A DNA stretch of 32,000 nucleotides from Ruminococcus albus 7 = DSM 20455 (GTDB taxonomy: Bacteria; Bacillota; Clostridia; Oscillospirales; Ruminococcaceae). Where the stretch lies: the NCBI RefSeq assembly GCF_000179635.2, contig NC_014833.1, positions 600,001 through 632,000 on the forward strand, in the 5' to 3' direction. The translations under genes were made by a program, and so were the position numbers. The notes beneath the pieces are model-generated. The model did no database searches. It saw only the letters and a program-made list of their open reading frames with translations, and had not been told where the DNA came from. Shown here piece by piece: positions 7,825 to 26,739 of the stretch (position 1 is the stretch's first letter; every line of letters begins with the position of its first letter).

Positions 7825-7828
7825 CCGC

Positions 7829-7866: not shown

Positions 7867-7871
7867 GGCAC

Positions 7872-7900: not shown

Positions 7901-7949
7901 ATCCATAACGATATATAACTATTACAAATATAACGAAAGGAACAATAAT

Positions 7950-9644
7950 ATGCCCGATAACAGAAAATACGCAATTTACAGCCGCAAATCCAAATTCACC
8001 GGCAAAGGTGAGAGCATTGAAAACCAGATTGAGATATGCAGGCGGGCGTTGAAAAGCAAATATGATGTAGTTGATGAGGACATTGTGGAGTTCGAGGATG
8101 AGGGCTTTTCGGGTGGCAACACCAAGCGCCCGAAATTTCAGGAGATGATGGAGCGCTGCCGCAATGGTGAGTTTCAGTTGGTTATTTGCTACCGTCTTGA
8201 CAGAATAAGCCGCAACACATCGGACTTTGTGAACACCTATGAGGAGCTGAAAGAACACAGCGTTTGTTTTCGTTCGGTCAGCGACAACATTGATGATACC
8301 TCGCCTATGGGCAGGGCTATGATGATGATAAGCTCGGTTTTTGCACAGTTGGAGCGTGACATTATTGCAGAGAGAATAACCGACAATATGCATGAGCTTG
8401 CCAAGTCGGGACGGTGGTTGGGCGGCAATCCGCCAACGGGTTACAGGAGTGCCGAGACCGTGGGCAGTATTACGGTTGATGGCAAGATACATAAGGCGAG
8501 AATGCTGGAGAAAAATCTCGAAGAGGCAGAGCTTGTCGGGCTGGTGTTCACTAAGTTTGTTGAACTGCGTTCTATTACTAAGGTGGAGACCTATCTGCTC
8601 AATAATGATTTCAAGTCGAAAAAGGGCAACACGCTTTCGAGGTTTGCCATTAAGACTATTCTGCAAAACCCTGTGTATGCCATTGCTGACGAGGATACAT
8701 GGGTATATTTGAACGAAAAAGATATGCAGTTGTACGGTTCGCGCGATGACTTTGACGGCATTCACGGTATTATGGCGTACAACAAGACCATACAGAAAAA
8801 GGGAAGGTCAATGAAGCAGAAAGCTCCAAGCGAGTGGATAGTGGCTGTTGGCAAGCACGAGGGCATTATCGAGGGCAAACGCTGGGTAGAGGTACAGCAT
8901 CTGCTTGAAAAGAACAGGGACAAGGCATACCGAAAGCCCAAGAGCAATACTGCACTTCTGTCGGGACTGCTGTTTTGTGCGTGCTGTGGAAGCTTTATGC
9001 GCCCAAAGCTTTCATCAAGGGTCAACAAGCAGGGCGAGAAGGTATATGATTACCTTTGCGAGCTCAAAGAAAGAAGTCACGGTCTCAAGTGTGATAATAA
9101 GCGAATTAACGGCAACGAGCTTGACCGTCAGATATGCGATGAGATAAAGCACCTGGGCGAGGACGATTCGGGGCTGATGAAGCTGCTAAGAAATTCACAG
9201 AAGAGTTTGAATGAGACATTCGCTGATTCGCAGGCAGAAATCGACAGGCTGACTGAAAAGAAAAAGCAGTATGAAGCCGAGCGCACAAATCTTGTTAAGG
9301 CTTTGACTTTGGCAGGCGAAACTATGGCTGCTGAGGACATCATCTCGCAAATAAACGATCTGCACACTAAGACTTCCGAGCTTGAAATGCAGATATCCGA
9401 GCACCGCAGGCTTATGGAAAACAGCGACATCACCGACGAGCAGTATCAAAGCCTTGCGGATATGCTGTCGTCATTTGCTAAAACTATTGACACATTAGAT
9501 GTTATGAAAAAGCGTGATGTTATACGCTGCTTCGTGCGTCGTGTTGAGTGGGACGGCGAGAATATCCACCTGTATCTTATGGGTGCAGAAAGCGGGGGTA
9601 CTGATGTGCTGCATTCAGAGCCGAAGTGCGAGTGTAGCAAATGA
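7950..9644 (+). CDS. Large serine recombinase, a SpoIVCA-like candidate excisase of the sigK-intervening element.
   Basis: The N-terminal resolvase domain reads AIYSRKSKFTGKGESIENQ...YRLDRISRN. It is followed by a recombinase domain, a zinc ribbon (CACCGSFM...C) and a long coiled-coil tail. The ATG at 7950 follows GAAAGGA. The stop codon at 9642-9644 falls inside the first sigK-homologous codons. Confidence 0.9.
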   Translation: MPDNRKYAIYSRKSKFTGKGESIENQIEICRRALKSKYDVVDEDIVEFEDEGFSGGNTKRPKFQEMMERCRNGEFQLVICYRLDRISRNTSDFVNTYEELKEHSVCFRSVSDNIDDTSPMGRAMMMISSVFAQLERDIIAERITDNMHELAKSGRWLGGNPPTGYRSAETVGSITVDGKIHKARMLEKNLEEAELVGLVFTKFVELRSITKVETYLLNNDFKSKKGNTLSRFAIKTILQNPVYAIADEDTWVYLNEKDMQLYGSRDDFDGIHGIMAYNKTIQKKGRSMKQKAPSEWIVAVGKHEGIIEGKRWVEVQHLLEKNRDKAYRKPKSNTALLSGLLFCACCGSFMRPKLSSRVNKQGEKVYDYLCELKERSHGLKCDNKRINGNELDRQICDEIKHLGEDDSGLMKLLRNSQKSLNETFADSQAEIDRLTEKKKQYEAERTNLVKALTLAGETMAAEDIISQINDLHTKTSELEMQISEHRRLMENSDITDEQYQSLADMLSSFAKTIDTLDVMKKRDVIRCFVRRVEWDGENIHLYLMGAESGGTDVLHSEPKCECSK

Positions 9645-11753: not shown

Positions 11754-11782
11754 TTGACTAATGTACGCCTCCGTGTTATAAT
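11754..11782 (+). promoter_or_regulatory. Near-consensus promoter for the hyd/nfl/hyp cluster.
   Basis: TTGACT lies at 11754-11759 and TATAAT at 11777-11782, separated by 17 nt and about 100 nt upstream of the first gene. A 7-bp hairpin (11806-11812 / 11819-11825) sits in the leader. Confidence 0.65.
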
Positions 11783-11879: not shown

Positions 11880-12125
11880 ATGCAGACAAGAGTAGCGGTT
11901 ATTTCTATCATTATTGAAGACGTCAGCTCTGTGGAAAGCATAAATTCCATACTGCACGAGTTCGGTGAATTCATATTCGGCAGGATGGGAGTGCCATACC
12001 GTGCCAAGGGCGTTAACATAATAAGTATCGCCATTGATGCACCGCAGGATAAGATAAATACCCTTGCGGGCAAGATAGGCAGATTAAACGGTGTTACTGC
12101 CAAGACGGTATATTCAACGGTCTGA
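11880..12125 (+). CDS. TM1266-family ACT-like small protein (putative iron-only hydrogenase system regulator).
   Basis: The 81-aa protein reads MQTRVAVISIIIED...SINSILHEFGEFIFGRMGVPYRAKGVNIISIAIDAP.DKINTLAGKIGRLNGV. This is the family known to be linked to hydE/F/G clusters. Confidence 0.75.
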   Translation: MQTRVAVISIIIEDVSSVESINSILHEFGEFIFGRMGVPYRAKGVNIISIAIDAPQDKINTLAGKIGRLNGVTAKTVYSTV

Positions 12126-12327: not shown

Positions 12328-12375
12328 AAGCCCGTGTCCTCTGTTTCGGGGGATACGGGCTTTATTTATGCTTTT
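12328..12375 (+). terminator. Intrinsic terminator / attenuator hairpin in the hydF leader.
   Basis: A 12-bp stem pairs AAGCCCGTGTCC (12328-12339) with GGATACGGGCTT (12351-12362), with one G.U pair. It is followed by TATTTATGCTTTT and ends only about 30 nt before the hydF start. Confidence 0.6.
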
Positions 12376-12405: not shown

Positions 12406-13596
12406 ATGGGACTAAACGATACACCTTCGGGTGAGAGGGTGCACATAGGCTTTTTCGGACGCAGGAATGCAGGCAAATCAAGCGTGGTAAACGCTTTTAC
12501 AAATCAGGAGCTGGCGATAGTATCGGATACTCCGGGCACGACTACCGACCCTGTATATAAGGCGATGGAGCTTCTGCCGATGGGACCTGTAATGATAATT
12601 GACACCCCCGGTTATGATGATGAGGGTAAGCTTGGTGAACTCAGGGTCAGAAAGACCTCGGAGGTGCTGGGCAGAACAGACTGCGCTGTACTGGTGACCG
12701 ATTGTACAAGAGATCTTGATGAGAGCGAAAAGCAGCTGATAAAGCTGTTTGACAGCAGGCGCATACCATATGTCATAGCAAAGAATAAATCCGATCTTCT
12801 GGATGATATCCCTGCTGCAGATGAAAAAGAGATCTATGTCAGCGCACTTAATAATACTATGATACATGAGCTGCGCGAGAAAGTAGCTCAGCTTTCGGCA
12901 TACAAAGAGCAGAACGTTCCGCTTGTGGGCGACCTTATCGGTGAGGGCGGACTTGCAGTGCTTTGCATACCCATAGACAAGGCAGCACCCAAGGGCAGAT
13001 TGATACTTCCTCAGCAGCAGGTGATCCGTGACCTGCTGGAGCATGGTGCGGCAGCACTTACCTGCCGTGAGACCGAGCTCAAGAGTTTCCTGGAAAAGCT
13101 GAACCCAAAGCCCGATGCGGTAATAACCGACAGTCAGGTGTTTGCACGCGCGAATGCTGATACTCCGCCTGATATAAAGCTTACATCTTTTTCCATACTC
13201 ATGGCGAGATACAAGGGATTCCTTGCACCTGCTGTGCGCGGCGCAAAAGCGATAGACAGCCTTAAAAACGGCGACAGGATACTCATTTCCGAGGGCTGTA
13301 CTCACCACCGCCAGTGCGAGGATATCGGAACGGTGAAGCTGCCGAAGCTGCTGAAAAAATACACAGGCAAGGATTTCAGGCTGGAGTTTTCCTCAGGCAG
13401 GGAATTTCCCGATGACCTTACCGACTACGCACTTGTTATACACTGCGGAGGCTGTATGCTCAATGCAAGGGAGATGAGCAGCCGCATAATGACTGTTGAG
13501 GAAGCAGGTGTACCTGTTACCAATTACGGTATCGCCATAGCTTATATGAACGGTATCCTTGAAAGAAGTCTGGAGTTGATCCCCGATATTATGTGA
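12406..13596 (+). CDS. hydF: [FeFe]-hydrogenase H-cluster maturation GTPase HydF.
   Basis: GTPase motifs are present: G1 GRRNAGKSS, DTPG and NKSD. The C-terminal FeS motif is EGCTHH...IHCGGC. The ATG at 12406 follows AAGGAGA. The longer ORF from 12256 was rejected. Confidence 0.9.
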   Translation: MGLNDTPSGERVHIGFFGRRNAGKSSVVNAFTNQELAIVSDTPGTTTDPVYKAMELLPMGPVMIIDTPGYDDEGKLGELRVRKTSEVLGRTDCAVLVTDCTRDLDESEKQLIKLFDSRRIPYVIAKNKSDLLDDIPAADEKEIYVSALNNTMIHELREKVAQLSAYKEQNVPLVGDLIGEGGLAVLCIPIDKAAPKGRLILPQQQVIRDLLEHGAAALTCRETELKSFLEKLNPKPDAVITDSQVFARANADTPPDIKLTSFSILMARYKGFLAPAVRGAKAIDSLKNGDRILISEGCTHHRQCEDIGTVKLPKLLKKYTGKDFRLEFSSGREFPDDLTDYALVIHCGGCMLNAREMSSRIMTVEEAGVPVTNYGIAIAYMNGILERSLELIPDIM

Positions 13597-13607: not shown

Positions 13608-14114
13608 ATGAGTGAAAAATTTGTATACGATAAGTCTTCACCCGATGCTGATAAGTATACCGAGGTGGATAAGTTCCTTCAGTTGACAGAACGCTACTGT
13701 AAAAAAGGCTTAGGTGCGATCGCAAGCAAAGTTGGTTCAAAGCTTGGTCTTAAAAACAGTTCCAGACCCTATTCTTCTTTGCAGCGAGCAGTGAAGATAA
13801 TCAATGCCGATGGCATCGAAGGCGTATATGATGATCTCATGCACTGCACACGCGTTGAGCGATGCGATATATTCATTGGTAAAAGCTATCTGTTCCGACA
13901 GAACAATTTCATGTGCCGCATTAAGGATATAAAAAAATGTTATATCCTTAAGGAAGAAAGCGGTGATGATATCCTTTACCATTGTTATGCGGATATCAGC
14001 GATGAAGCAGGAGATGAAACTCTTGAATTAAGAAAACTCAGTGCCCTGAAAGTACAGAGGCTGCTGCAGTTTGATGAGATAAGAAAGCTGATAGGCATAG
14101 AAGAACAGGAGTAG
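13608..14114 (+). CDS. Hypothetical 168-aa protein embedded between hydF and hydE.
   Basis: The ATG at 13608 follows GAGGTGA and lies 11 nt after the hydF stop. The gene is on the same strand as its neighbours. The protein has six Cys and matches no family I recognise. Confidence 0.6.
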   Translation: MSEKFVYDKSSPDADKYTEVDKFLQLTERYCKKGLGAIASKVGSKLGLKNSSRPYSSLQRAVKIINADGIEGVYDDLMHCTRVERCDIFIGKSYLFRQNNFMCRIKDIKKCYILKEESGDDILYHCYADISDEAGDETLELRKLSALKVQRLLQFDEIRKLIGIEEQE

Positions 14115-14157: not shown

Positions 14158-15195
14158 ATGAGCAAGGCTCTTATAGATAAGCTGAATAAAGAGAAGCATC
14201 TCGAAAAAGAAGAATGGGTGACCCTTTTATCTGGGTATACCGACGATGACAGGGCTTACGCCGCGGGTATCGCGCGTGAGATAAGTACCTCGCGTTTCGG
14301 AAATAAGATATTCATTCGCGGTATCGTGGAATTTTCAAACGTCTGTAAGAACGACTGCTACTACTGCGGAATAAGACGTTCCAATACCAACGTTCAGCGG
14401 TATCGGCTTACCCCCGATGAGATACTCGACTGCTGTGACGAGGGCTATGAACTTGGTTTCCGTACCTTTGTTTTGCAGAGCGGTGAGGATAAGAGCTATA
14501 CTAACGATACCCTCTGTGATATCGTCCGCAGGATAAAGGCAGCTCACCCCGACTGCGCTGTTACCCTTTCTCTCGGTGAACTGACCTATGAGGAATACAA
14601 GGCTTTACGCGAAGCAGGTGCTGACAGATATCTTCTGCGCCACGAAACAGCCGACAAAGCCCATTATGAGAAACTTCACCCCGCCGAGATGTCATGGGAT
14701 GACCGCATGGAATGTCTTAAATATCTGAAAGAACTGGGATACCAGACAGGTGCAGGCATCATGGTAGGTTCCCCCTATCAGACTATGGAGTGTATCGCTG
14801 AGGATATGCTTTTCTTTGAAAGCTTCAAACCCGAGATGATAGGCATAGGACCATTCCTGCCCCACAAGGATACGCCTTTCAGGGACGAACCCAAAGGCAG
14901 TTACGAATTGACACTTTTCCTGCTGAGTCTGTGCAGGATACTTCTCCCCGATGTTCTCCTGCCCGCAACTACCGCCCTCGGCACGATACGTCCCAACGGC
15001 AGGGAGGAAGGTGTAAAGGCAGGCGCTAACGTTATAATGCCCAACCTTTCCCCAACAGCGGTGAGAAAGAAATATATGCTTTACGATAACAAGATATGCA
15101 CAGGTGACGAAAGCGCACAGTGCCGCGGATGTCTTGAAATGAGAATGAAGTCCATCGGCTACGAGGTAGCTGTATCAAGAGGTGACCATATATGA
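14158..15195 (+). CDS. hydE: [FeFe]-hydrogenase maturation radical SAM enzyme HydE.
   Basis: The CX3CX2C motif is CKNDCYYC. The protein has a BioB-like fold and HydE-typical length (345 aa) and sequence (...FVLQSGED...GAGIMVGSPYQT...). Confidence 0.9.
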   Translation: MSKALIDKLNKEKHLEKEEWVTLLSGYTDDDRAYAAGIAREISTSRFGNKIFIRGIVEFSNVCKNDCYYCGIRRSNTNVQRYRLTPDEILDCCDEGYELGFRTFVLQSGEDKSYTNDTLCDIVRRIKAAHPDCAVTLSLGELTYEEYKALREAGADRYLLRHETADKAHYEKLHPAEMSWDDRMECLKYLKELGYQTGAGIMVGSPYQTMECIAEDMLFFESFKPEMIGIGPFLPHKDTPFRDEPKGSYELTLFLLSLCRILLPDVLLPATTALGTIRPNGREEGVKAGANVIMPNLSPTAVRKKYMLYDNKICTGDESAQCRGCLEMRMKSIGYEVAVSRGDHI

Positions 15196-15950
15196 TAAAA
15201 TTTGCTGTATACGGAAAAGGCGGCATAGGTAAATCCACTATCGCCTGCAATATCTCGGCGGCACTGGCTGCAAAAGGTCTTACCGTCATGCAGATAGGCT
15301 GTGACCCCAAGGCGGATTCAACATCTCTCCTCCACGGCGGCGACAGGATACCTACCGTATTGGATATGACCCGCAAAACAGGCGGCAAGTTCACCCTTGA
15401 CGATGTGGTCTTCAAGACCCCAAGCGGAGTATACTGCGTTGAAGCCGGCGGACCTGTCCCGGGACTGGGCTGTGCGGGCAGAGGTATAATCAATGCCCTG
15501 GAAAGCCTTGAAAAGCTGGGTGCTTATGAGGTATACAAGCCCGATGTTGTAGTCTACGATGTCCTCGGCGATGTGGTATGCGGAGGATTCTCTATGCCCA
15601 TGCGCAAGGGCTATGCTGATAAGATATTCGTTGTCTGTTCGGGTGAGAAAATGTCCAGATATGCGGCGGCAAATATCTGCATGGCTGTTGAGAATTTCAA
15701 GGGCAGAGGATACGCTTCCCTTGGCGGCATAATACTAAACCGCAGGGGAGTACCCGATGAAGACGAAGCGGCAGAGGAGCTTGCGGCTGATTTCAATACA
15801 TCTGTCATAGGTACTCTCGACCGCAGTGAGGATATACCTCTTGCGGAAGAAATGGGCAAAGCGATAGTGGCTTCCGCCCCCGAATGTGAAACTTCAAAAC
15901 AGCTGAAAGCAATAGCCGATGCGGTATACGCTATTTGCGGAGGTGAGTGA
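15192..15950 (+). CDS. NifH/BchL/CfbC-family ATPase, nitrogenase-like iron protein copy 1.
   Basis: The P-loop is GKGGIGKST and switch I is CDPKADST. Both cluster-ligand contexts are present: GCAGRG and DVVCGGF. The start overlaps the hydE stop (ATGA). Confidence 0.9.
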   Translation: MIKFAVYGKGGIGKSTIACNISAALAAKGLTVMQIGCDPKADSTSLLHGGDRIPTVLDMTRKTGGKFTLDDVVFKTPSGVYCVEAGGPVPGLGCAGRGIINALESLEKLGAYEVYKPDVVVYDVLGDVVCGGFSMPMRKGYADKIFVVCSGEKMSRYAAANICMAVENFKGRGYASLGGIILNRRGVPDEDEAAEELAADFNTSVIGTLDRSEDIPLAEEMGKAIVASAPECETSKQLKAIADAVYAICGGE

Positions 15951-15951
15951 T

Positions 15952-17265
15952 ATGCTCAGAAAAACAGAGCTTGACCGTCCACCCGTGATAAGGCTGGGCG
16001 ATGCGCCCCGCGGTGATTTCTTCACAAGCGGACTTGAATACAATCCACCTGCAAGGGGTGTATGGAACATAGTCCATACAGGTATGCTGATACCCGAAGC
16101 ACATGAGATATTCGCCTGTGCCCAGGGCTGTCTCCGCGGTGTTATCCTCACGGCGGCTGAAATGAATGCTCTTGACCGCATGAGCTGGATATCCGTTTCC
16201 GAGCAGGATATGTTCGACGGTACGCTGGAAAGCGATGTGGTTGACGGCGTGTGTGAAATAATCGAAGGTCTGCCTTACAGACCACGCGCTGTGCTTTTGT
16301 ATCTCAGCTGTATACACCTTTTTGCAGGGGTAGATTTCGATATCATAATACGGGACCTTTCAGAAAAATTTCCCGATATAGATTTTTCGGACTGCTATAT
16401 GACCCCTACCATGCGCAAGACCATCTCTCCCGATGCTAAAATGAGGATAAGACTTTACAATGGGCTGAAGCCCCTGCCAGTAGATGAACGCTCGGTGAAT
16501 ATCATCGGCAACGACCGTGCTACCGATGAAAACAGCGAACTTGTCCGCATAATAAGGGATAATGGTTTTACTCTGAGGGATATAACCTCATGCAGGACCT
16601 ACGATGAATATCTTGATATGGCAAAGGCGGCGGTGAATATCGCTTATCTGCCTACGGCGGCGATTGGCTGTAATGAATTATCCGAGCGGTTAGGCACAAA
16701 GGCTTTGTATCTGCCTAACAGCTTTGACTATTCCGAGATACGTGCGAACATCGCAAAACTATGTGAAACTCTCGGCGTACCATGCCCCGACCTTTCGCGT
16801 GAAGAAAAGCAGGCAGAGGACGCACTTTTCTCCGCAAAAAAAGCTTTGGGCGATACTCCCGTAGCTATCGACTTCACAGCGGTAACACAGCCCTTCTCTC
16901 TGGCGAAACTCCTTTGCGAAAAAGGCTTCAATGTGAAGTATATCATAAATGATGTTCTGGGCGAGGACGGCGCCGCATTTGATGCACTGAAAACTCTCGC
17001 TCCCGATATTGAGATATACTCGGCGGTTAATGTGAATATGCTGCATTTCCCCGAGGAAGACCATGAAAAAGTCATAGCCGTGGGTCAGAAAGCCGCACAT
17101 TACTTCAACACCGACTATTTCGTTAATATAGTCCAGAACGGCGGATATTACGGCTTTACAGGCATAGCTGAGATAGCACGCCTGATAGAAGAAGCGGCAA
17201 ACGCACCAAAGGACAGGCGGACTCTTATATCACACAAGGGTATCGGCTGTGAGAGCTGTTTATAA
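15952..17265 (+). CDS. Nitrogenase component-1-type oxidoreductase subunit, NifD/NifE/BchN-like, copy 1.
   Basis: It occupies the position after the H gene. Motifs include ACAQGC and LSCIHLFAGVDFD (like the TCxxxxIGDD context). The product is 437 aa. The ATG at 15952 follows GGAGGTGA. Confidence 0.7.
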   Translation: MLRKTELDRPPVIRLGDAPRGDFFTSGLEYNPPARGVWNIVHTGMLIPEAHEIFACAQGCLRGVILTAAEMNALDRMSWISVSEQDMFDGTLESDVVDGVCEIIEGLPYRPRAVLLYLSCIHLFAGVDFDIIIRDLSEKFPDIDFSDCYMTPTMRKTISPDAKMRIRLYNGLKPLPVDERSVNIIGNDRATDENSELVRIIRDNGFTLRDITSCRTYDEYLDMAKAAVNIAYLPTAAIGCNELSERLGTKALYLPNSFDYSEIRANIAKLCETLGVPCPDLSREEKQAEDALFSAKKALGDTPVAIDFTAVTQPFSLAKLLCEKGFNVKYIINDVLGEDGAAFDALKTLAPDIEIYSAVNVNMLHFPEEDHEKVIAVGQKAAHYFNTDYFVNIVQNGGYYGFTGIAEIARLIEEAANAPKDRRTLISHKGIGCESCL

Positions 17266-17329
17266 TTCATAATTCATAATTATTGGCATTGGCGATACAG
17301 TGTCAATGATCATGAAAAAGAGGTTTACT

Positions 17330-18529
17330 ATGAAAAATGTCAGTAAGATAATACCATGCTATGCGGCGGATACTTCGGGCGTATGTTCGGCGCTGTATGA
17401 GTTTGGCGGCATGATAGTCGTGCATGATGCATCGGGCTGCAATTCCACTTATTCAACCCACGATGAACCCCGCTGGTACGATATGCGCTCGGATATCTAT
17501 ATCTCCGCGCTTACCGAGACCGATGCTATCCTCGGCAACGATGAAAAGCTTATCGAGGATATAGTCTCAGCCGCTAAAGACCGTCAGCCCGCATTTATAG
17601 CGCTGTGCGGTTCACCCATGCCCATGATGACAGGCTTCGACTACGAAGCTGTGGCGCGGGATATTCAGGGATGGACCGGTATACCGACTTTCGGTCTGGC
17701 AACCAATGGTACACGTTCGTATATCAGCGGTGCAGGTATGGCGCTTGAAGCTATTGTCCGTGAGTTCGTACATGATATGCCCAAGGAAGATTTCGACGGC
17801 ATCGCCATAAATATCATAGGTGCGACCCCCCTTGATTTCGGTCTTACGGGGGCAGTTGAAAGCATGAAGAAGCTTTACAGCAGACCTAAGATGAAAGTCA
17901 TATCCTCCATAGGCATGGGCGGCACTCTCGATGAGATACGCAAAGCAGCCTCTGCAAATGTGAATCTCGTGGTATCCTACTGCGGGCTTCCTGCGGCGCG
18001 GTATATGGAAAAGGAATTCGGTATACCCTATATCTGCGGCGTTCCCCTGGGCGATGTTGATATGATACAGGCAGGTGCTCTCAGCAGTTTTATGTATGAA
18101 ACTGCCCATGACGGCATAAGCAGAATGATGGCGGCAATGTGCCGCGGCAGAGCAACCGACGAAAAAGCCGAGCGTCTTGTCATAGGCGAGGCTGTGCTTG
18201 CAGGGTCGATAGCCTTTGAATGGTCTATAATGACCCGCCATGCGGTAGATGTTATATGTCCCCCGGATATAGATGCAGAACTTTCTCCCGATAAAAAGGA
18301 TATGCCCCTATATGCCGAGGAAGACATCAAGGCATATATCAAAGACCGCGGCATTAAGGAAGTCGTGGCAGACCCCCTGTACAAATACATCATACCCGAG
18401 GGATGCAGGCTTATCGAACTGCCCCACTTCGCTTTCTCGGGCAGATGCTTTGCAAAGGATATGAAAGATCCTACGTGTAATGACTTTCTGGATGATCTTG
18501 TACTCGCAATAAATAAGAAAAATGAATGA
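17330..18529 (+). CDS. Nitrogenase component-1-type oxidoreductase subunit, NifK/NifN/BchB-like, copy 1.
   Basis: Motifs include VHDASGC, DEPRWY and ALCGSPMPMMTGFDYE. It is a paralogue of 20588..21613. The ATG at 17330 follows AAGAGG. Confidence 0.7.
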   Translation: MKNVSKIIPCYAADTSGVCSALYEFGGMIVVHDASGCNSTYSTHDEPRWYDMRSDIYISALTETDAILGNDEKLIEDIVSAAKDRQPAFIALCGSPMPMMTGFDYEAVARDIQGWTGIPTFGLATNGTRSYISGAGMALEAIVREFVHDMPKEDFDGIAINIIGATPLDFGLTGAVESMKKLYSRPKMKVISSIGMGGTLDEIRKAASANVNLVVSYCGLPAARYMEKEFGIPYICGVPLGDVDMIQAGALSSFMYETAHDGISRMMAAMCRGRATDEKAERLVIGEAVLAGSIAFEWSIMTRHAVDVICPPDIDAELSPDKKDMPLYAEEDIKAYIKDRGIKEVVADPLYKYIIPEGCRLIELPHFAFSGRCFAKDMKDPTCNDFLDDLVLAINKKNE

Positions 18530-18541
18530 GGAGTTTTTTGA

Positions 18542-19306
18542 ATGATAAAACTGGCGATATACGGCAAGGGCGGTATAGGAAAATCCACCTGTACCGCGAA
18601 CCTCGCGGCGGCTTTCGCATCTCTTGGAAAAAGGGTGATACAGATAGGCTGTGACCCCAAGGCGGATTCTACCATAAATCTGCTGGGCGGAACACCTGTA
18701 ACCCCTGTTATGGACTATATGCGCGACCGCGACGAAGAACCGACTTCCATCGAGGAGATATCTCAGATAGGTTTCGGCGGTATACTCTGTATCGAAACAG
18801 GCGGACCCACCCCGGGTCTCGGCTGTGCGGGCAGAGGTATCATCACCACATTTTCCCTGCTGGAAGAACTTGAACTTTTTGAGAAGTTCAAGCCCGATGT
18901 GGTTCTCTACGATGTCCTCGGTGACGTGGTATGCGGAGGATTTGCCGCCCCTATAAGAGAGGGCTACGCCGACAAGGTGCTGATAGTTACCTCGGGCGAA
19001 AAGATGGCGTTGTATGCCGCTAATAATATCAACAAAGCGGTGAAGAATTTTGAGGACAGAAGCTATGCCAAAGTACGCGGTATAATCATGAACCGCCGCG
19101 CCGTTGAAAACGAGGAAGAAAAAGTCCGCGCTTTTGCCGAGTCAGCAGGTCTTGACGTTGCGGCTGATATCCCGCGTTCGGCTGATATAATAAAGTACGA
19201 GGATATGGGCAAGACCGTCATCGAGGGCGACCCCGAATGTGAAACTTCAAAGCGCTTCTTCGACCTCGCCAAAAAACTCATAGCGGAGGAAGAACAGGAT
19301 GATTGA
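18542..19306 (+). CDS. NifH/BchL/CfbC-family ATPase, nitrogenase-like iron protein copy 2.
   Basis: It has [23 protein letters not shown] and DVVCGGF. By eye, roughly half of its positions are identical to copy 1. Confidence 0.9.
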
Positions 19307-20591
19307 CGCATACTACATCACCTCCGCCGACCTCGCCGCAAAGGGTTTTGAAAATACCCCCGACGAACTCATGAGCCACAAGCATATGATATATTCGTCC
19401 CCCGCAACACTGGATTTCAATTCTCCCGGTGCAAAGGGATTCGGCGTAAAAAGAGCGGGTCTTGCCATACCCGGTTCTGTGATGCTTCTGGTAGCCCCCG
19501 GCTGCTGCGGAAGAAATACCGCACTTCTCAACGAACTGGGATATAACGAAAGATTTTTCTATCTGCTTCTCGATGATACCGATATCGTCACAGGCAGACA
19601 CCTCACAAAGATACCAAAGGCGTGCAGAGAAGTCTGCGAAAGCCTTGACTATACACCCACAGCAGTGATGATATGCATTACCTGTGTTGACGCACTTCTC
19701 GGTACGGATATGGAACGTGTATGCCGCAAGTGCGAGGACGAAACGGGCGTACCGACTGTCCCCGCATATATGTATGCGCTTACAAGAGAGAAGCGTCTGC
19801 CCCCCATGGCAGGAGTGAGAAAGTCGGTATACTCGCTGCTGAAGCCGCAGAAGAGGATATCCAACGAATGTAATATACTCGGATATTTCAGCCATGTTCA
19901 CGATGACAGCGAGCTGTATGACCTTCTTCACAGTGCGGGCATAAAGAAAGTTCGTGAGCTTTCAAGGTGCAGTACAATAGATGAATACCACGAGCTTTCA
20001 AGGGCGAATTTCAACCTTGTGATAAATGCCGAAGCACGCTATGCCGCACAGGATATGGAAAAGCGTCTGGGTATACCCTTTATCGAGCTGACGAGAATGT
20101 ACAGGCTTGATAAGATACGCAATCAGTACCGTCTGCTTGGTCAGGCGCTGGGTGCAGAATTTGATGATGATAAATATTACGATAAAGCCAAAACCGCAGT
20201 AGATAACTTCATATCAAAACACGGAAAAATATCTGCGGCGGTGGGCGAGTGCGTAAATGCTGACAGCTTTGAACTTGCCCTTGCACTTACAGAGTACGGC
20301 ATAAAGGTCAGCGAGATATACGGCACGGTGGGGGAGAGAAACTTCGTATTCATAAAGAAACTTGCTCAGGTATCCCCCGATACCCGCATATTCTCGAACC
20401 TTTCGCCTACGATGCTGAATTATGAGAGAAAGACCGATATAGATGTTGCGATAGGTGTTGACGCGGGATATTATCACCCCGACCTGCCCTGCGCACAGTT
20501 CAATACCGAGGAACAGCCTTTCGGATATGAGGGCGTTGAACGCCTGCTTGCAGAACTTGACGAAGCACTTGCAAAGGAGGAGAAGAAATGA
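19299..20591 (+). CDS. Nitrogenase component-1-type oxidoreductase subunit, NifD/NifE/BchN-like, copy 2.
   Basis: Motifs include VAPGCCG and [15 protein letters not shown]. The product is 430 aa. The gene overlaps the upstream H gene by 8 nt. Confidence 0.7.
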
Positions 20592-21613
20592 AAAAGTTTT
20601 TGAGATATATCTCTCCCCTTGCCCCCGATGATTCAGGTGCCTGTTCGGTGCTTTACGAACTTGGTGGTATCACCGTTATATGTGATGCGGGCGGATGCGC
20701 GGGCAATGTCTGCGGCTTTGATGAACCCCGCTGGTTCACTAAAAAATCAGCGCTGTTCAGTGCGGGACTCCGTGATATGGACGCTATCCTCGGCAGAGAT
20801 GACCGCCTTGTTGCAAAGCTTGCCCTTGCACAGCAGCAGCTTGAAAGGGACTTCACCGCCATCGTCGGCACACCTGTCCCCGCAGTCATTGCCACCGACT
20901 ATAAAGCCCTTGAACGCATGGCTGAAAAGAAAACAGGCGTACCCTGTATCACTGTTCAGACCGACGGCACAAAGCTTTACGATAAAGGCGAGGAAGAAGC
21001 CTACCTGCGTTTGTTCAAAACATTTGCAAAGGAAAAACTCCCCACCCGGAAAGGCACTGCCGCCGTCATAGGCGCTACACCTCTCGATACGGGCTTCATC
21101 ACCGCCGATACCATAGTATCGCAGATAAAGGCTGAGGGCTTTGAGGAAGTCAAATGCATCGGCTTCGACAGCGGACTTGACGAAGTAAAAAACATCTCCC
21201 GCTTTGAGAAGATATTCGTCATATCGCCTGCTGGCATCAGGGCAGGAAATTACCTTAAAGAAAATTTCTCCCTTGATGTTGAAGTGCACGGCTGTCCCCT
21301 GCCAAAGGAGTATACCGATAAGCTGAAAGACCTAAGAACAGGCGGCAGAACTCTTATCATACACCAGCAGATGACAGCAAACGCTGTCCGCGATATCATA
21401 GGCGATTCGACCTGCGGAACGTTCTTCATGCTTGATAAGACCGCCGCACAGGAAGGCGACTTCCACATAAAGGACGAGGAAGACCTCGCCGAAAAGGCAA
21501 AGGGCTTCGACCTTATAATAGCCGATATCAGCCTTAAACGCGCCCTCCCCGAGTTTAAGGGCGAATGGTTCGACCTGCCCCACTTTGCAGTTTCGGGCAG
21601 AACTTTCCAATAA
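20588..21613 (+). CDS. Nitrogenase component-1-type oxidoreductase subunit, NifK/NifN/BchB-like, copy 2.
   Basis: Motifs include ICDAGGCAGNVCGFDEPRWF and a C-terminal DLPHFAVSGR (copy 1 has ELPHFAFSGR). The start overlaps the upstream gene (ATGA). The product is 341 aa. Confidence 0.7.
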   Translation: MKKFLRYISPLAPDDSGACSVLYELGGITVICDAGGCAGNVCGFDEPRWFTKKSALFSAGLRDMDAILGRDDRLVAKLALAQQQLERDFTAIVGTPVPAVIATDYKALERMAEKKTGVPCITVQTDGTKLYDKGEEEAYLRLFKTFAKEKLPTRKGTAAVIGATPLDTGFITADTIVSQIKAEGFEEVKCIGFDSGLDEVKNISRFEKIFVISPAGIRAGNYLKENFSLDVEVHGCPLPKEYTDKLKDLRTGGRTLIIHQQMTANAVRDIIGDSTCGTFFMLDKTAAQEGDFHIKDEEDLAEKAKGFDLIIADISLKRALPEFKGEWFDLPHFAVSGRTFQ

Positions 21614-21626
21614 CAGATAGAAGAAG

Positions 21627-23939
21627 GTGAGCAACATAAAAACTGTCAATATACGTGTTTTCGGCATAGTACAGGGCGTGGGTTTCCGACCTTTCACCGC
21701 TGTCACCGCCGAAGAACTCGGCATCAGCGGAACAGTGGCGAATAAGGGTTCCTATGTGGATATCTATGCCACAGGTGAAGAAGCTTCTCTTGCAGCCTTT
21801 GCCGACAGGATAAGACATGATCCGCCCGAACGCGCCATGGTGCTTGAGGTGGAAGTCACCGATATTGAATATACCGAATTTTCGGGCTTTGAGATAATTG
21901 AGAGCGAAAAGGAGATGGGAGATATATTCGTTTCCCCCGATATCGCCACCTGCCCGAAATGCCGTGCTGAACTGTTCGATAAAACGGACAGAAGATATCT
22001 GCACCCCTTTATAAACTGTACCCAGTGCGGTCCGCGTCTGACTATACTGGAGTCTATGCCCTATGACCGCGAACGCACTACCATGAAAGAACACCCCATG
22101 TGTGAAAAGTGTTCTTCAGAGTACCACGCCCCCGCAACACGCCGCTATGACGCACAGCCCGTGTGCTGTAATGAATGCGGACCCGAGGTCTATATAGTCG
22201 GCACCGATATAAAGGGCGGTGAAGCTATAACACATCTGCGCCGCGCTATAATGGAAGGTAAGATAGCGGCTGTAAAAGGCATAGGTGGTTTCCACCTTTG
22301 CTGTGATGCCCACAACGAGGAAGCCGTATCGCGCCTTCGCGGACTTAAAAAACGTCCCGCAAAGCCCTTTGCAGTCATGATGCGTGATATGGATACTGTG
22401 CGCAGACAGTGCCATGTCAGGGACGGTCAGGAAGAATACCTAACAGGCTGGCAGAAGCCCATAATGCTTCTTAAAAAGCGCAGCTGCTGCACTCTCAGCG
22501 AGAAGATAGCCCCCGACAATACCACCGTGGGCGTTATGCTTCCCTATGCCCCTGTGCAGATGCTATTATTCGATTATCCCGATGATGTTGATATGACAGA
22601 CTGCCTTGTAATGACAAGCGGCAACGTCAGCGGCGCACCAATATGCCGCAGTGACGAAGATGCCCTCAAAGAGATAGGCAGCTTCTGTGACCTCATGCTT
22701 TCCCACAACAGGAAGATACTACTGCGTGCAGACGACAGCGTGTGCGACTGGCTTTTCGATAAGCCCTATATGATACGGCGCTCCCGCGGTTTCGCGCCCC
22801 TGCCCGTCATGCTGAAAAACAAGGCTGACAAACAGGTGCTTGCCGTAGGCGGCGAGCTGAAAAACAGCTTCTGCATAGCAAGAGGCGACCTGCTTTATCC
22901 CTCGCCCTACGTGGGAGATATGGCGGATATCCGCACCGTAAAAGCCCTGGAAGAAAGCACCGAGAGAATGTGCGGGCTTCTCGAAACGACCCCCGAGGTC
23001 ATCGTATGCGATACCCACCCCAAGTACAACACCGTCCGCGTGGCTGAGGATATCGCAGAAAAACGGGGCATACCCCTGATAAAGGTACAGCATCACTACG
23101 CCCATATACTTTCCTGCATGGCTGAAAACGGCTTTGACGGAAAGGTGATCGGTGTCAGCTTCGACGGCACAGGCTACGGCGATGACGGCACTATATGGGG
23201 CGGCGAATTTCTCCTCTGCGATTACCGCGGCTATAAAAGGGTCGGAAGTATACGTCCATTTATGCAGACAGGCGGCGACCTCTCATCAAAGGAGGGCTGG
23301 CGCATAGCCTCGGCACTTATACGCGATGCTTTCGGCGACGGCGGAGAAGTCCTCTGTCAGCGTCTTGGCATATGCGACGGCATGGAGTATAAACTGCAAA
23401 AGGCTATGGCTGAAAAGGGTCTCAACTCTGTTAAGTCCACAAGCTGCGGCAGACTTTTCGATGCCGTGTCCGCTATACTCGGTATAAAGAGGACATCCAC
23501 TTTTGAGGGCGAAGCTTCCGTAGCCCTTATGTGCGAAGCTGAGCGCTGTTTAGCAAAGCGCCCCGAGATATCTGAGAATTACCGTACTCCCGAAAAGCTG
23601 ATAAAGTATCAGGACGGTTTTGTAACTCTCTGTACAATGGCACTTGCGGCTGATATAGCCGAGCGTAAACTCGCCTGCTGTCAGCCCGATGTGCTTGCCT
23701 ATACCTTCCATGCGGTGCTTGCTGATATGGTAACAGCCGCCTGCGAAAAGATAAGCGAGGACACAGGCATAAAGACCGTTGCACTCAGCGGCGGAGTTTT
23801 CCAGAACCGTCTGCTGACAAAGCTGTGCCACGAAAGGCTTACAGCCAAAGGTTTCACCGTACTTCTGCACAGCCTGATACCGCCCAACGACGGCGGCATA
23901 GCTCTGGGACAGGCAGCGTATGGTATATATAATTCATAA
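21627..23939 (+). CDS. hypF: Carbamoyltransferase HypF.
   Basis: An acylphosphatase domain (VQGVGFRP) is followed by two zinc-finger pairs (CPKC...CTQCGPR, CEKC...CNECGP), a YrdC-like domain and a Kae1-like domain. The product is 770 aa with a GTG start. Confidence 0.95.
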   Translation: MSNIKTVNIRVFGIVQGVGFRPFTAVTAEELGISGTVANKGSYVDIYATGEEASLAAFADRIRHDPPERAMVLEVEVTDIEYTEFSGFEIIESEKEMGDIFVSPDIATCPKCRAELFDKTDRRYLHPFINCTQCGPRLTILESMPYDRERTTMKEHPMCEKCSSEYHAPATRRYDAQPVCCNECGPEVYIVGTDIKGGEAITHLRRAIMEGKIAAVKGIGGFHLCCDAHNEEAVSRLRGLKKRPAKPFAVMMRDMDTVRRQCHVRDGQEEYLTGWQKPIMLLKKRSCCTLSEKIAPDNTTVGVMLPYAPVQMLLFDYPDDVDMTDCLVMTSGNVSGAPICRSDEDALKEIGSFCDLMLSHNRKILLRADDSVCDWLFDKPYMIRRSRGFAPLPVMLKNKADKQVLAVGGELKNSFCIARGDLLYPSPYVGDMADIRTVKALEESTERMCGLLETTPEVIVCDTHPKYNTVRVAEDIAEKRGIPLIKVQHHYAHILSCMAENGFDGKVIGVSFDGTGYGDDGTIWGGEFLLCDYRGYKRVGSIRPFMQTGGDLSSKEGWRIASALIRDAFGDGGEVLCQRLGICDGMEYKLQKAMAEKGLNSVKSTSCGRLFDAVSAILGIKRTSTFEGEASVALMCEAERCLAKRPEISENYRTPEKLIKYQDGFVTLCTMALAADIAERKLACCQPDVLAYTFHAVLADMVTAACEKISEDTGIKTVALSGGVFQNRLLTKLCHERLTAKGFTVLLHSLIPPNDGGIALGQAAYGIYNS

Positions 23940-24413
23940 TTAATAATTGCGCGGCGGGGTTTTGTGAATGGCAAAGCTTTCATGCTGCGGACGACAGTAT
24001 GTTAAGGACCAATTTGACAACAGCAAGCTACATTTATCGGCTTGCTGCAATAAACGTAAAGAACCCAAACAAAACAATATGACCCTCACAGCAAGGCAAG
24101 AGCCCACTGCCGACGCAGTCGCAGTTAGCGCCCTCTTGACCGAGCACTGGGGGTATGGGGGGTTCCCCCATAAGGAATCATTATCATACCACAACAAAGC
24201 TTAATTTGAAGCCCAAAATAAAGTAATATAAACCAACAGCAAGGCAAGAGCCTGAGCGCCCCTTGAGCATAGTGAGCTGCGGGAGCGTAGCGACCAAAGC
24301 GAACGCCGCTCAAGCCCTAACCGGGCGCGAAGGTCTTGCCGCGCACAACATCATCAAAGCTGATGTTTGGAGTATGAGGGGCTTTGCCCCTCATTTAGAA
24401 TAGGAGGATAAAT
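23940..24413. repeat. Non-coding spacer with degenerate direct repeats and GC-rich palindromes.
   Basis: A roughly 45-nt unit, (G)CCCAAA.AAA..AATAT.A.C..ACAGCAAGGCAAGAGCC, occurs at 24063-24105 and 24211-24253. CAAAGCT occurs three times. Hairpins lie at 24021-24047, 24154-24172 and 24375-24392. Confidence 0.6.
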
Positions 24414-24623
24414 ATGTGTGTTGGATTATCTGCAAAAGTAGTAAATGTTAAGGACGGTACAGCCCTTATAGATGCAAACGGCGCAAAGCGCGAGGTCAGC
24501 GCCGATCTGCTGGAAGATCTCGAACCAGGTGATTATGTAATGGTGCACGCAGGTGTGGCTATCGCAAAGATCACCGAGAGCGACGAGGACGAAGCATTTG
24601 ATGTAATGGAGGGTCTGCTGTGA
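24414..24623 (+). CDS. hypC: Hydrogenase maturation chaperone HypC.
   Basis: The N-terminus is MCVG, carrying the essential Cys2. The protein is a 69-aa OB-fold and matches HypC/HupF-family sequence throughout. Confidence 0.9.
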   Translation: MCVGLSAKVVNVKDGTALIDANGAKREVSADLLEDLEPGDYVMVHAGVAIAKITESDEDEAFDVMEGLL

Positions 24624-25666
24624 ACGAACAGGCTAAAAAGGCAAGGGATATAATCGTTAACTATAAGGGAAGACCCCTGCGTATAATGGAGGTCTGCGGC
24701 ACCCATACCCATGAGATATTCAAACTGGGTCTGCGCAAGCTGCTGCCCGAAAATGTTGAACTCATCTCGGGACCCGGATGTCCCGTATGCGTAACTCCCG
24801 TGGGATTTATAGATGAAGCTATATGGCTGGCACTGGAGAAAGGCTGTGTTATAACCACATTCGGTGACCTTATCCGTGTACCGGGTACGGAGATGTCTCT
24901 TGCAGGTGCAAGGGCTAAGGGCGCACAGGTACGCCCCGTTTATTCCCCGCTGGATGCAGTTGAAATGGCAAGACAGAACCCCGATGAACAGATAGTTTTC
25001 TTAGCTGTCGGCTTTGAGACAACTACCCCCTCTGCCTGTCTTGCGGCTGAAACAGCAAAGAAGGAGGGTCTCACTAACTTCTCTCTGCTGACCGCAAACA
25101 AGACCATGCCCAATGCCTATGCGGCACTTGAAGGCAGTGCTGATGCTTTCCTCTATCCGGGTCATGTAAACGCGATAACAGGTACAGCTATATGCGAGGA
25201 ACTTAAAGCCAAAGGCGTATCGGGTGTTATCGCAGGCTTTACCGCAAGCGAACTTCTCACCGCCCTTGCAGTGATACTGAAGAACGCCGAAAAGGACGAG
25301 CCTTTCTTTGTCAACTGCTACCCCCGCGTAGTTAAGCCCGAGGGCAATCCGCCCGCTCGGAAGCTTATTGAAAAGGTAATGGAGCCCTGCGATACCGAAT
25401 GGCGCGGTCTTGGCGTTATCCCCATGTCGGGCATGAAACTCCGCGATGAGTACGCCGATTTCGATGCAAGAAAGAAGTACGCTATGCCCGAGATAAAGGG
25501 CAAGCCCAATCCTGCCTGCCGCTGTGGAGAAGTCCTGCAAGGCAAATGCAAACCCTGTGACTGCAAGGTATTCGGCAAGGTATGTACCCCCGAACACCCC
25601 GTAGGTGCCTGCATGGTATCTGATGAGGGTGCCTGTGCGGCTTATTATCAGTACGGCGGAGTATAA
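24620..25666 (+). CDS. hypD: Hydrogenase maturation factor HypD.
   Basis: Motifs include CGTHTH, GPGCPVCV and C-terminal Cys-rich motifs (...PACRCG...CKPCDC...GACMVS.EGACAAYY). The GTG start overlaps the hypC stop. Confidence 0.95.
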   Translation: MNEQAKKARDIIVNYKGRPLRIMEVCGTHTHEIFKLGLRKLLPENVELISGPGCPVCVTPVGFIDEAIWLALEKGCVITTFGDLIRVPGTEMSLAGARAKGAQVRPVYSPLDAVEMARQNPDEQIVFLAVGFETTTPSACLAAETAKKEGLTNFSLLTANKTMPNAYAALEGSADAFLYPGHVNAITGTAICEELKAKGVSGVIAGFTASELLTALAVILKNAEKDEPFFVNCYPRVVKPEGNPPARKLIEKVMEPCDTEWRGLGVIPMSGMKLRDEYADFDARKKYAMPEIKGKPNPACRCGEVLQGKCKPCDCKVFGKVCTPEHPVGACMVSDEGACAAYYQYGGV

Positions 25667-25731: not shown

Positions 25732-26739
25732 ATGTCAGAAAAAACAGTTACCCTCGCCCACGGTGCGGGCGGAAAGCAGACCTCGGAACTTATCGACAGA
25801 GTTTTCAAGGCACATTTCTCAAATCCTCAGTTCACAGCAGATGATGCCGCTGTGCTGAATATCGGCGACGGCAGACTTGCCATGTCCACCGACGGCTTCA
25901 TCGTTTCCCCTTTTGAATTCAACGGCGGAAACATCGGCAAACTTTCCATCTGCGGAACAGTCAACGACCTTTCCTGCATGGGTGCGAAGCCTCTGTACCT
26001 CACCTGTGCTTTCGTCATCGAAGAGGGATTCCCACTTGACAAGCTTGAAGAGATTGCCGCTTCTATGGAAAAGACCGCGGCTGAGGCTGGTGTCAAGATA
26101 GTCGCAGGCGATACCAAGGTAGCAGGCAAGGGTCAGGTGGATAAGATATTCATCACCACCACAGGCATAGGCAGGATAATGGATAACGCCGATACCTCGG
26201 GCACATACGCTAAGCCCGGCGATGCTGTCATAGTTACGGGCGATGTGGGCAGACACGGCTGTACCATACTTCTCGCCCGCGATGAATACGGCATAGATGC
26301 CAATGTTGACAGCGACTGCGCACCTCTCTGGGGCACAGTTGAAAGCCTGTATACCGTCACCAATGATATCCACACTATCCGTGACGCTACCCGCGGCGGC
26401 GTTGGTACAGTCCTCTATGAGATAGCCGAGCAGAGCAATGTAGGTGTTCGCCTGAACGCAGAAGATATCCCCGTTGACCCAGCTGTCAAGGGCGTTTGTG
26501 GTATGCTGGGTCTTGAACCCCTCTACCTCGCCTGTGAGGGCAGACTTGTAATAATCGCTCCCAAGGACAAAGCACCTGCACTTGTTGAAAAGCTCCGCGA
26601 GGGCAAGTATTCAAAGAATGCCGCTATCATCGGTGAGATAACCGCCGAAAACGCAGGCAGAGTAGTCATGGAGACCGAGATAGGCGCCCAGACCATGCTC
26701 CCTCAGCCCGGCGGCGAACTTCTGCCGCGCATATGCTGA
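25732..26739 (+). CDS. hypE: Hydrogenase maturation carbamoyl dehydratase HypE.
   Basis: The protein has a PurM-like fold. Its N-terminus is LAHGAGG and its C-terminus is the PRIC motif. Confidence 0.95.
   Translation: MSEKTVTLAHGAGGKQTSELIDRVFKAHFSNPQFTADDAAVLNIGDGRLAMSTDGFIVSPFEFNGGNIGKLSICGTVNDLSCMGAKPLYLTCAFVIEEGFPLDKLEEIAASMEKTAAEAGVKIVAGDTKVAGKGQVDKIFITTTGIGRIMDNADTSGTYAKPGDAVIVTGDVGRHGCTILLARDEYGIDANVDSDCAPLWGTVESLYTVTNDIHTIRDATRGGVGTVLYEIAEQSNVGVRLNAEDIPVDPAVKGVCGMLGLEPLYLACEGRLVIIAPKDKAPALVEKLREGKYSKNAAIIGEITAENAGRVVMETEIGAQTMLPQPGGELLPRIC

Follow-up and report, generated by a model that had tools for sequence, protein, structure and literature searches.

The closest described relatives of the system studied here belong to the 'NifHEN-like' clade of Coprococcus catus GD/7 as well as Dorea longicatena (Dos Santos et al. 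2012, BMC Genomics 13:162, PMC3464626). The arrangement was first noted in that 2012 study, which gave a brief description and, from Coprococcus catus, a one-line suggestion similar to the reading that we favour below. It is the only literature we found on nitrogenase-like (NFL) genes that adjoin Hyd and Hyp hydrogenase maturation genes; our search returned no functional follow-up, and the Hyd/Hyp-linked arrangement goes unmentioned in a survey of NFL systems that appeared in Chemical Reviews in 2026. Here we analyse two consecutive sets of NFL genes, H1-D1-K1 (trio 1) and H2-D2-K2 (trio 2), at 15192-21613 of a 32,000-nt stretch of DNA from Ruminococcus albus 7 (the window, to whose positions coordinates refer). 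The window shares with the published clade two linked H-E-N copies, adjoining hydrogenase maturation genes in Firmicutes, equivalents of Cys88 and Cys154 in the D/E-like subunit and an equivalent of Cys95 in the K/N-like subunit. The same features occur in 40-48 related loci, Lachnospiraceae included, where three loci (L065, L072, L080) have the layout of the window; this match is to the published description of the clade and not to the C. catus sequence.

It is firmly established that the trios are two distinct, complete and non-redundant NFL systems, each tied by synteny to a different iron-carbonyl-cyanide maturation machinery. The flanking hydrogenase-maturase genes, left unused in an earlier sequence-only reading of this DNA, are the most informative feature of the locus. 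A scan of one genome per species identified at least 597 genomes with a relative of D1, and relatives of D1 and K2 number in the thousands in metagenomes. The 80 best were taken for loci, with open reading frames (ORFs) labelled against the window proteins and counts limited to loci with enough flank. They come from Ruminococcus, Oscillospiraceae, Lachnospiraceae, Clostridium, rumen Lentisphaeria/Victivallales and one Synergistaceae metagenome-assembled genome (MAG). The type A layout is TM1266-(HydF)-HydE-H1-D1-K1-H2-D2-K2-HypF-C-D-E. Type B, as labelled with Pfam, comprises TM1266, a FecCD permease, an ATP-binding cassette (ABC) ATPase-TM1266-like fusion, HydE, H1, D1, K1, a Peripla_BP_2 lipoprotein and HydF, sometimes with an aspartase-like lyase, and is without trio 2 and without Hyp genes. 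Among the 58 loci with enough upstream flank, 56 encode TM1266, 47 HydE and 31 HydF. Of 57 loci, 40 combine trio 2 with three or more Hyp genes and 5 combine it with fewer; 12 have neither trio 2 nor Hyp genes, and none (0/57) has Hyp genes without trio 2. The trios lie next to each other in 48 of 64 loci. Trio 1, which can stand alone, is linked to TM1266/HydE/HydF, and trio 2 is linked to HypFCDE; this partition is firmly established. The sequence-only reading had proposed that the two complexes are functionally distinct, and their different partners across the 80 genomes (Hyd versus Hyp) bear this out. No other gene family recurs in the flanks of the 80 loci.

The complete block (TM1266, HydE, both trios and HypFCDE) is also present in rumen Lentisphaeria/Victivallales (L039-L049), a different phylum, at 47-78% identity. 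This implies horizontal transfer as one unit within the rumen, and transfer of the 12-gene block as a unit is what would be expected of a functional unit. Fusions of H1 to D1 occur in Clostridium aromativorans and C. lapidicellarium and fusions of D1 to K1, of 786-1010 aa, also exist (fusions of the family: L054, 9167-11287; L062, 9158-11254; proteins P0128, P0166, P0172, P0175, P0192, P0210). Such fusions indicate that a trio acts as one complex.

Both trios carry the hallmarks of the NFL superfamily, a NifH-like ATPase and the component-1 fold in two adjacent paralogous subunits (D and K). H1 and H2 contain the P-loop (GKGGIGKS), switch I (DPKADS), CAGRG and the combined switch II/cysteine motif, and with them the two [4Fe-4S] cysteines. 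These motifs are invariant in 80 H1 and 53 H2 orthologues, which upholds the earlier claim that both H copies retain them. All four D/K proteins match Oxidored_nitro (PF00148) at 45-112 bits against a cut-off of 28.6 bits. None of the six proteins reaches the curated NCBIfam cut-off for NifH, CfbC, BchL/X, NifD/K, NifE/N, BchN/B or CfbD. H1 and H2 score 296 and 315 bits on the nifH model TIGR01287 (cut-off 394) and 293 and 301 bits on the CfbC model (cut-off 402). Scores are likewise below the cut-offs for BchL (178-207 bits versus 345), BchB (30-50 versus 490), BchN (15 versus 420), nifE (19-72 versus 505), nifN (18 versus 327) and CfbD (TIGR03282, 18-20 versus 268). The AlphaFold2 model of D1 has a predicted local distance difference test (pLDDT) score of 91.8 and Foldseek template-modelling (TM) scores of 0.6-0.69 to NifN/K/E/D, MarD and BchN. 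The K2 model (pLDDT 81.3) is low in confidence exactly at residues 33-45 and 96-102, the putative cluster loops, and gives TM scores of 0.6-0.71 to NifN, BchB and NifE. Identity across the Foldseek matches (NifN, NifK, VnfK, NifE, NifD, MarD, BchN, BchB) is 10-18%, with no favourite. The modelled folds show membership of the superfamily, not of any characterised family.

Conservation of cysteines was counted over 52-82 orthologues per subunit, and columns were assigned from HMMER alignments to solved NifE and NifD chains. D1 C120 and D2 C129 fall on the NifD Cys154/NifE Cys124 column, D2 C129 aligning with the cysteine of NifE 'TCV..L.GDD'. The Pfam register and the H/A/D-x-x-G-C motif would place D1 C60 and D2 C70 at alphaCys88, and K1 C47 and K2 C37 at betaCys95. 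The equivalents of alphaCys88, alphaCys154 and betaCys95 are 89-100% conserved. The region of alphaCys62 is replaced by PARGxWNIVH, a family signature, in D1 and by GAKGF in D2, and at the betaCys153 column K1 (GSPMP) and K2 (GTPVP) alike have an invariant proline.

The motifs quoted in the sequence-only reading (ACAQGC, APGCCG, DASGC, DAGGC, DEPRW, DAILG.D, LPHFA.SGR and the C-terminal GCESCL) are all in the sequence, but the asymmetry it drew from the cysteines is weak. It had assigned a second cluster cysteine to D1, D2 and K1 and none to K2, and from this had suggested different inter-subunit clusters. D1 C120 and D2 C129 do lie on the canonical column, whereas K1 C103 is three residues upstream of it, inside the preceding strand. 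C103 is kept in 57 of 75 orthologues (76%), with alanine in 17. Since K1 C103 is off register and poorly conserved, and the canonical column is proline in K1 and K2 alike, it is not good evidence for different clusters. Nor is K2 a cysteine-poor partner, as C32, C37 and C42 (CDAGGCxGNxCGFDEPRW) are invariant in 52/52 orthologues. The alignments place the real differences between the trios in this Cx4Cx4C motif and in extra cysteines of D1 and D2. C56, C60, C120 and C148 (in DCYMTPTMR) are invariant in D1, C214 is 98% conserved and a flexible C-terminal CxxC (C433/C436) ~92%. In D2, C69, C70, C126, C129 and C224 are invariant and C142 is 98% conserved; K1 C29 and C47 are at 92% and 89%.

It is firmly established that the trios are not nitrogenases, because the NifH cut-offs are missed, the ligands of the iron-molybdenum cofactor (FeMo-co) and alphaCys62 are absent, and no NifB is encoded nearby. 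The nitrogenase P-cluster has six cysteines (alpha 62/88/154, beta 70/95/153), and good conservation is limited here to the equivalents of alpha88, alpha154 and beta95. Equivalents of alphaCys275/NifE Cys250 and of alphaHis442 are absent from the D subunits: the profile alignment to NifE has no cysteine at the Cys250/275 column and no histidine in the 442 region. No NifB is found near the trios, and HydE is the sole radical S-adenosylmethionine (SAM) gene in the 80 loci.

The trios are probably ancient paralogues, or two lineages brought together, and not a recent local copy, because D1 groups with a different family and the copies are strongly diverged. Identity is 52% between H1 and H2, 23% between D1 and D2 and 28% between K1 and K2. 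A third NFL family, represented by locus L082 with a Peripla_BP_2-FecCD-ABC-NifH-D-K operon, resembles either trio more than the trios resemble one another. D1 and D2 score 210 (30% identity) and 159 bits, respectively, against the D subunit of this ABC-linked family and 104 bits against one another; the corresponding values for K1 and K2 are 184, 141 and 139 bits. Neighbour-joining trees group D1 with the ABC-linked family to the exclusion of D2 in 100/100 bootstraps with two distance measures (Poisson and BLOSUM), for very divergent sequences and with outgroups chosen by similarity to D1. A recent tandem duplication is rejected on the low D/K identities and the tree placement of D1. Of the tandem duplication claimed in the sequence-only reading, the layout therefore stands, as six co-directional ORFs in two consecutive H-D-K sets span exactly the six-gene interval, and the descent does not.

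The genes of both trios are intact, and strong purifying selection acts on them. The ratio of non-synonymous to synonymous substitution rates (dN/dS), determined against two genomes (R. albus AR67, L003, and a Ruminococcus sp. MAG, L005), is 0.007-0.18 for all 12 cluster genes and 0.03-0.18 for the six NFL genes. With the ATPase motifs invariant and dN/dS low, the possibility that one trio is a decaying duplicate, which the earlier reading had held against its own proposal, is refuted.

The products of the genes that flank the trios, HydE, HydF, TM1266 and HypC/D/E/F, all score above their NCBIfam equivalog cut-offs and keep their diagnostic motifs. The cluster-binding CxxxCxxC and CxH...HCxxC cysteines are conserved in HydE/HydF, with HydF Cys298/304/347/350 kept in 34-35 of 35 orthologues. 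The window is without HypA, HypB, an endopeptidase, a hydrogenase structural gene, NifB and HydG. HypC/D/E/F have canonical motifs, and no HypA/B, endopeptidase or [NiFe] large subunit recurs in the window and 10-kb flanks of the 80 loci. The locus is not a standard [NiFe]-hydrogenase maturation system. Clostridial acetogens with HypCDEF and without HypA/B have been reported without explanation (PMC9431212). A HydG query against the window and the other fetched loci matched only HydE genes, at no more than 28% identity, and tblastn of HydE and Cetobacterium HydG against a plasmid collection returned no Ruminococcus record. In the related clostridial bacterium Monoglobus, hydF and hydE form a plain operon with no NFL genes, hydG is on another contig, and HydE is 53% identical to that of the cluster. 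HydE/HydF thus have the appearance of ordinary maturases, and that hydG is missing from the cluster is in itself nothing unusual.

R. albus is described as using [FeFe]-hydrogenases (Greening et al. 2019), and its rows in Table S2 of that study list only [FeFe]-type entries, as far as these are legible without column headers. The R. albus 7 RNA-seq values in the rows of Table S7 that cover the cluster show even, low expression of Rumal_0543-0556 (~30-125 units), unchanged in co-culture with an H2 consumer, as would be expected for maturation genes. In the same rows Rumal_0542 (TM1266) is expressed ~ten-fold above Rumal_0543, a drop that fits a hairpin located between the TM1266 gene and hydF.

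We propose, tentatively, that the trios are ATP-driven reductases or scaffolds in the assembly of iron-carbonyl-cyanide cofactors, a reading that falls a little short of probable. At each D-K interface a simple [4Fe-4S]-type cluster would be bound in 3+1 fashion, like those of NifEN and the dark-operative protochlorophyllide oxidoreductase (DPOR), and the cysteine beside the Cys88 equivalent (D1 C56, D2 C69) may replace alphaCys62 as a ligand. Each core would be supplied by its own H dimer with electrons of low potential as ATP is hydrolysed, and would reduce, or serve as scaffold for, an Fe-CO/CN intermediate. This intermediate would be one handled by HydE/HydF in the case of trio 1 and one produced by HypCDEF in that of trio 2. 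The most likely product is an H-cluster-type or related organometallic iron cofactor, because the host appears to have only [FeFe]-hydrogenases. A more specific version, which we consider improbable, is an undescribed organometallic iron route in which NFL reductases act on, or carry, Fe-CO/CN units from HypCDEF that are processed by HydE/HydF. Two forms of this route are possible, either a HydG-independent or HydG-supplementing path to the [2Fe] subcluster or a new class of carbonyl/cyanide-iron NFL enzyme. If true, it would explain why HypCDEF are kept in gut and rumen Clostridia without [NiFe]-hydrogenase and HypA/B.

Several points weigh against the proposal of a role in cofactor assembly. 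Its support comes from gene neighbourhood and sequence, and the ligation of the interface cluster is read from alignments. HydE/HydF look like housekeeping maturases, such that the link of trio 1 to them could reflect operon history or co-regulation. To our knowledge, canonical assembly of the H-cluster and of Fe(CN)2CO needs no such reductase in model organisms. The apparent restriction of the host to [FeFe]-hydrogenases derives from a table without visible column headers. Lastly, an iron-chelate-type ABC importer is encoded beside the nearest relatives of D1 and in type B loci, which suggests another kind of substrate.

That last point underlies the idea of trio 1 (perhaps trio 2 as well) as a reductase of a metal chelate or tetrapyrrole-like compound taken up by the cell, in chemistry of the DPOR, chlorophyllide oxidoreductase (COR) or CfbCD type, with the Hyd/Hyp neighbourhood reflecting a shared iron economy or regulation and not shared chemistry. 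The nearest D1 outgroup does lie in an importer operon, type B operons keep the importer with its TM1266-like fusion, and an ABC association of related clades was noted previously (Dos Santos et al. 2012, PMC3464626). However, neither the window nor most type A loci contain a transporter, TM1266 and HydE adjoin the trio in both locus types, and the tie between trio 2 and the Hyp genes is strict. We judge this explanation to be improbable. A genuine nitrogenase, or a trio that is the decaying duplicate of the other, is so improbable as to be close to negligible. Older annotation does label Rumal_0546 and Rumal_0549 'Nitrogenase', and rumen surveys count such NifH homologues as putative nitrogenases. 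Both ideas are nonetheless rejected, the former by equivalog cut-offs missed by wide margins and by the missing FeMo-co ligands, alphaCys62 and NifB, and the latter by the selection data and the invariant motifs.

The D and K subunits could instead be the end users of the Hyd and Hyp proteins, that is, catalytic NFL cores with an Fe(CN)2CO-derived or [2Fe]-type cofactor built by their neighbours. This would mean a new ATP-driven organometallic enzyme acting, for example, on H2/H+, CO or CO2, and we know of no precedent for it. It would account for a complete and canonical HypFCDE set where HypA/B, the endopeptidase and a [NiFe] large subunit are absent nearby, for the self-contained movement of the block into Lentisphaeria, and for extra cysteines off the interface positions (D1 C148, C214 and CxxC; D2 C126, C142 and C224; the K2 Cx4Cx4C). 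Expression that is uniformly low and, in the published rows, unresponsive to removal of H2 speaks against it, as do the occurrence of trio 1 without any Hyp genes nearby and the absence of the NifD cofactor-pocket ligands Cys275 and His442; overall it seems unlikely. The sequence-only reading had offered, as an example, a division of labour with a NifEN-like scaffold in one trio and, in the other, a NifDK-like catalyst to which the finished cofactor passes. Adjacency and joint transfer of the trios are in keeping with this, NifE is the closest sequence model for D2 and K1, and the same analogy has been raised for four-gene NFL sets (Dos Santos et al. 2012, PMC3464626). As stated, the analogy is not supported: trio 1 is found alone, there is a separate H protein for each trio, D1 and D2 are not the nearest relatives of one another, the accessory sets differ and the cysteine asymmetry cited as evidence fails. 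It is accordingly a doubtful model, and quite improbable.

The trios form the middle of a one-strand cluster of ~15 kb that corresponds to Rumal_0542-0556 (Table 1). Gene order in the window is that of R. albus 7 Rumal_0539-0561, and R. albus proteins are the closest database matches, at 88-99% identity. The cluster reads TM1266, hairpin, HydF, orf168, HydE, H1-D1-K1, H2-D2-K2, HypF, HypC, HypD, HypE. The six NFL ORFs are tightly packed and encode proteins of 252 (H1), 437 (D1), 409 (K1, from the first GTG), 254 (H2), 430 (D2) and 341 (K2) aa.

Table 1 Features of the hydrogenase-maturase and NFL gene cluster in the window.
Feature	Position	Strand	Basis
Promoter-like site, TTGACT-17-TATAAT with TG extension	11754..11782	+	Consensus scan, 11/12 matches; consensus match only
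TM1266-family small protein, putative [FeFe]-hydrogenase-system regulator (Rumal_0542)	11880..12125	+	TIGR03959 111 bits, cut-off 60.8
Hairpin with U-rich tail, likely terminator or attenuator	12328..12362	+	Terminator scan; RNA fold -31.5 kcal/mol, z -6.8
HydF, H-cluster maturation GTPase; ORF open from 12256, likely start 12406	12406..13596	+	TIGR03918 549 bits, cut-off 326
orf168, lineage-specific, without known family	13608..14114	+	No Pfam/NCBIfam match
HydE, radical-SAM H-cluster maturase	14158..15195	+	TIGR03956 571 bits, cut-off 255
H1, NifH-like ATPase/[4Fe-4S] reductase, trio 1	15192..15950	+	Fer4_NifH E 1.6e-83
D1, NifD/E-like subunit, trio 1; ATG at 15952 after GGAGGTG ribosome-binding site	15952..17265	+	Oxidored_nitro 74 bits
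K1, NifK/N-like subunit, trio 1; start may be ATG at 17330	17300..18529	+	Oxidored_nitro 102 bits
H2, NifH-like ATPase/[4Fe-4S] reductase, trio 2	18542..19306	+	Fer4_NifH E 6.9e-89
D2, NifD/E-like subunit, trio 2	19299..20591	+	Oxidored_nitro 112 bits
K2, short NifK/N-like subunit, trio 2, invariant Cx4Cx4C	20588..21613	+	Oxidored_nitro 45 bits
HypF, carbamoyltransferase	21627..23939	+	TIGR00143 750 bits, cut-off 466
HypC, chaperone, N-terminal Cys2	24414..24623	+	TIGR00074 61.5 bits, cut-off 48; Cys2 in 43/43 orthologues
HypD, [4Fe-4S] scaffold protein	24620..25666	+	TIGR00075 413 bits, cut-off 193; CGTHTH, GPGCPVC, GFETT in translation
HypE, C-terminus ...LLPRIC (canonical PRIC)	25732..26739	+	TIGR02124 426 bits, cut-off 252

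Some further features of the locus and its relatives deserve mention. The hairpin between the TM1266 gene and hydF has a 16-bp GC-rich stem, which suggests that it could govern read-through into the whole cluster; an Rfam scan of the entire window, this hairpin included, gave no match. In type B loci (L055, L059, L061, L069 and others) the ABC ATPase fused to a TM1266-like domain lies beside the FecCD permease, and the Peripla_BP_2 lipoprotein gene is placed between those for K1 and HydF. The TM1266 fold may serve to sense a ligand, as a domain common to the transporter and to the small protein encoded on its own. In other R. albus strains orf168 is present as three diverged copies in tandem (168, 215 and 211 aa; L001, 6346-8180), and none was found outside R. 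albus-like genomes and loci. The spacer between HypF and HypC (23940-24413) is unusually long, 474 nt versus 225 nt in another R. albus strain, and contains a cysteine-rich 78-aa ORF (23968-24204) that appears to be Rumal_0553 ('hypothetical', ~56-69 expression units). Upstream of the cluster, a patchy low-GC stretch (3319-9644) encodes an integrase of rve type (3319-4155), then an IS1595 transposase (5134-6009) and lastly a large serine recombinase (7821-9644), which has the same position in other R. albus strains. Outside the window, Rumal_0521-0523 include a further nitrogenase component-1-like gene pair adjoining an ABC permease, and in the published RNA-seq rows for these genes the read counts vary widely between replicate cultures of one condition. 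On one short contig (L084, 1151-3537), genes for an AIRS/AIRS_C (HypE/ThiL/SelD-like) protein and a 4HBT thioesterase come before a distant D1 relative (34% identity), with overlap of stop and start codons. The distant relatives P0199, P0206 and P0250 are on contigs of too little length for their gene context to be informative.

In rumen and gut surveys, NifH homologues such as H1 and H2 routinely go into the 'nitrogenase' count, and such counts do not mean nitrogen fixation. The cluster is very common, gut Clostridia included, and through it the NFL superfamily is tied to the two machineries of hydrogenase-cofactor assembly in organisms for which Hyp proteins should be unnecessary. If this link is functional, it offers a testable path to the role of orphan HypCDEF in Clostridia, and to whether low-potential, ATP-coupled electron delivery serves the assembly of CO/CN-ligated iron cofactors. 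It could also bear on rumen H2 and methane metabolism.

Among characterised systems, NifEN with NifH provides the best sequence and profile matches of D1, D2 and K1 and shares the component-1 fold (TM ~0.6-0.7). Its biosynthetic role and its single interface [4Fe-4S] cluster with 3+1 ligation make it a plausible analogue. Unlike NifEN, the trios have no equivalent of NifE Cys250 and no NifB or L-cluster supply, and their partners are Hyd/Hyp and not Nif proteins. DPOR and COR (BchLNB, BchXYZ) and CfbCD likewise combine an ATP-dependent NifH-like reductase with a component-1-type core that uses only [4Fe-4S] clusters, and act biosynthetically on a metal-containing cofactor. In DPOR one cluster ligand is not a cysteine. 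The CfbC scores of H1 and H2 fall just short of their NifH scores; CfbD forms a homomer, and here D and K are distinct subunits. In contrast to DPOR/COR, no tetrapyrrole genes occur in the neighbourhood, and identity to BchN/BchB is 12-15%.

MarBHDK and IsrBHDK (Groups IV-C and IV-F) and Group VI of Elusimicrobia belong to the same NFL superfamily. Mar uses P- and L-type clusters and needs MarB/NifB. In the trios the corresponding ligands are absent, no NifB-like or sulfur-assimilation genes recur in the flanks, and MarD is one of many equidistant fold matches (12-15% identity). Like the trios, Group VI retains at most four of the six P-cluster cysteines and has no NifB (PMC13474568). The 2026 survey treats Group VI and the uncharacterised Groups IV-D and IV-E in outline.

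The closest sequence relatives found are the ABC-importer-linked trios, with 28-30% (D), 29-32% (K) and 55-56% (H) identity to both trios. They share the K signature HDASGC...DEPRW and have SPVP in place of the canonical cysteine. They differ in having no Hyd/Hyp genes, with type B loci, which combine the transporter with HydE/HydF/TM1266, as intermediates. The published account of the 'NifHEN-like' clade does not contain the Hyd/Hyp module split, the stand-alone trio 1, the K2 Cx4Cx4C or the D1 C-terminal CxxC. To that account the present analysis adds separate Hyd-linked and Hyp-linked modules, a stand-alone trio 1 with an importer, the relationship to the ABC-linked family, selection data and a corrected cysteine map.

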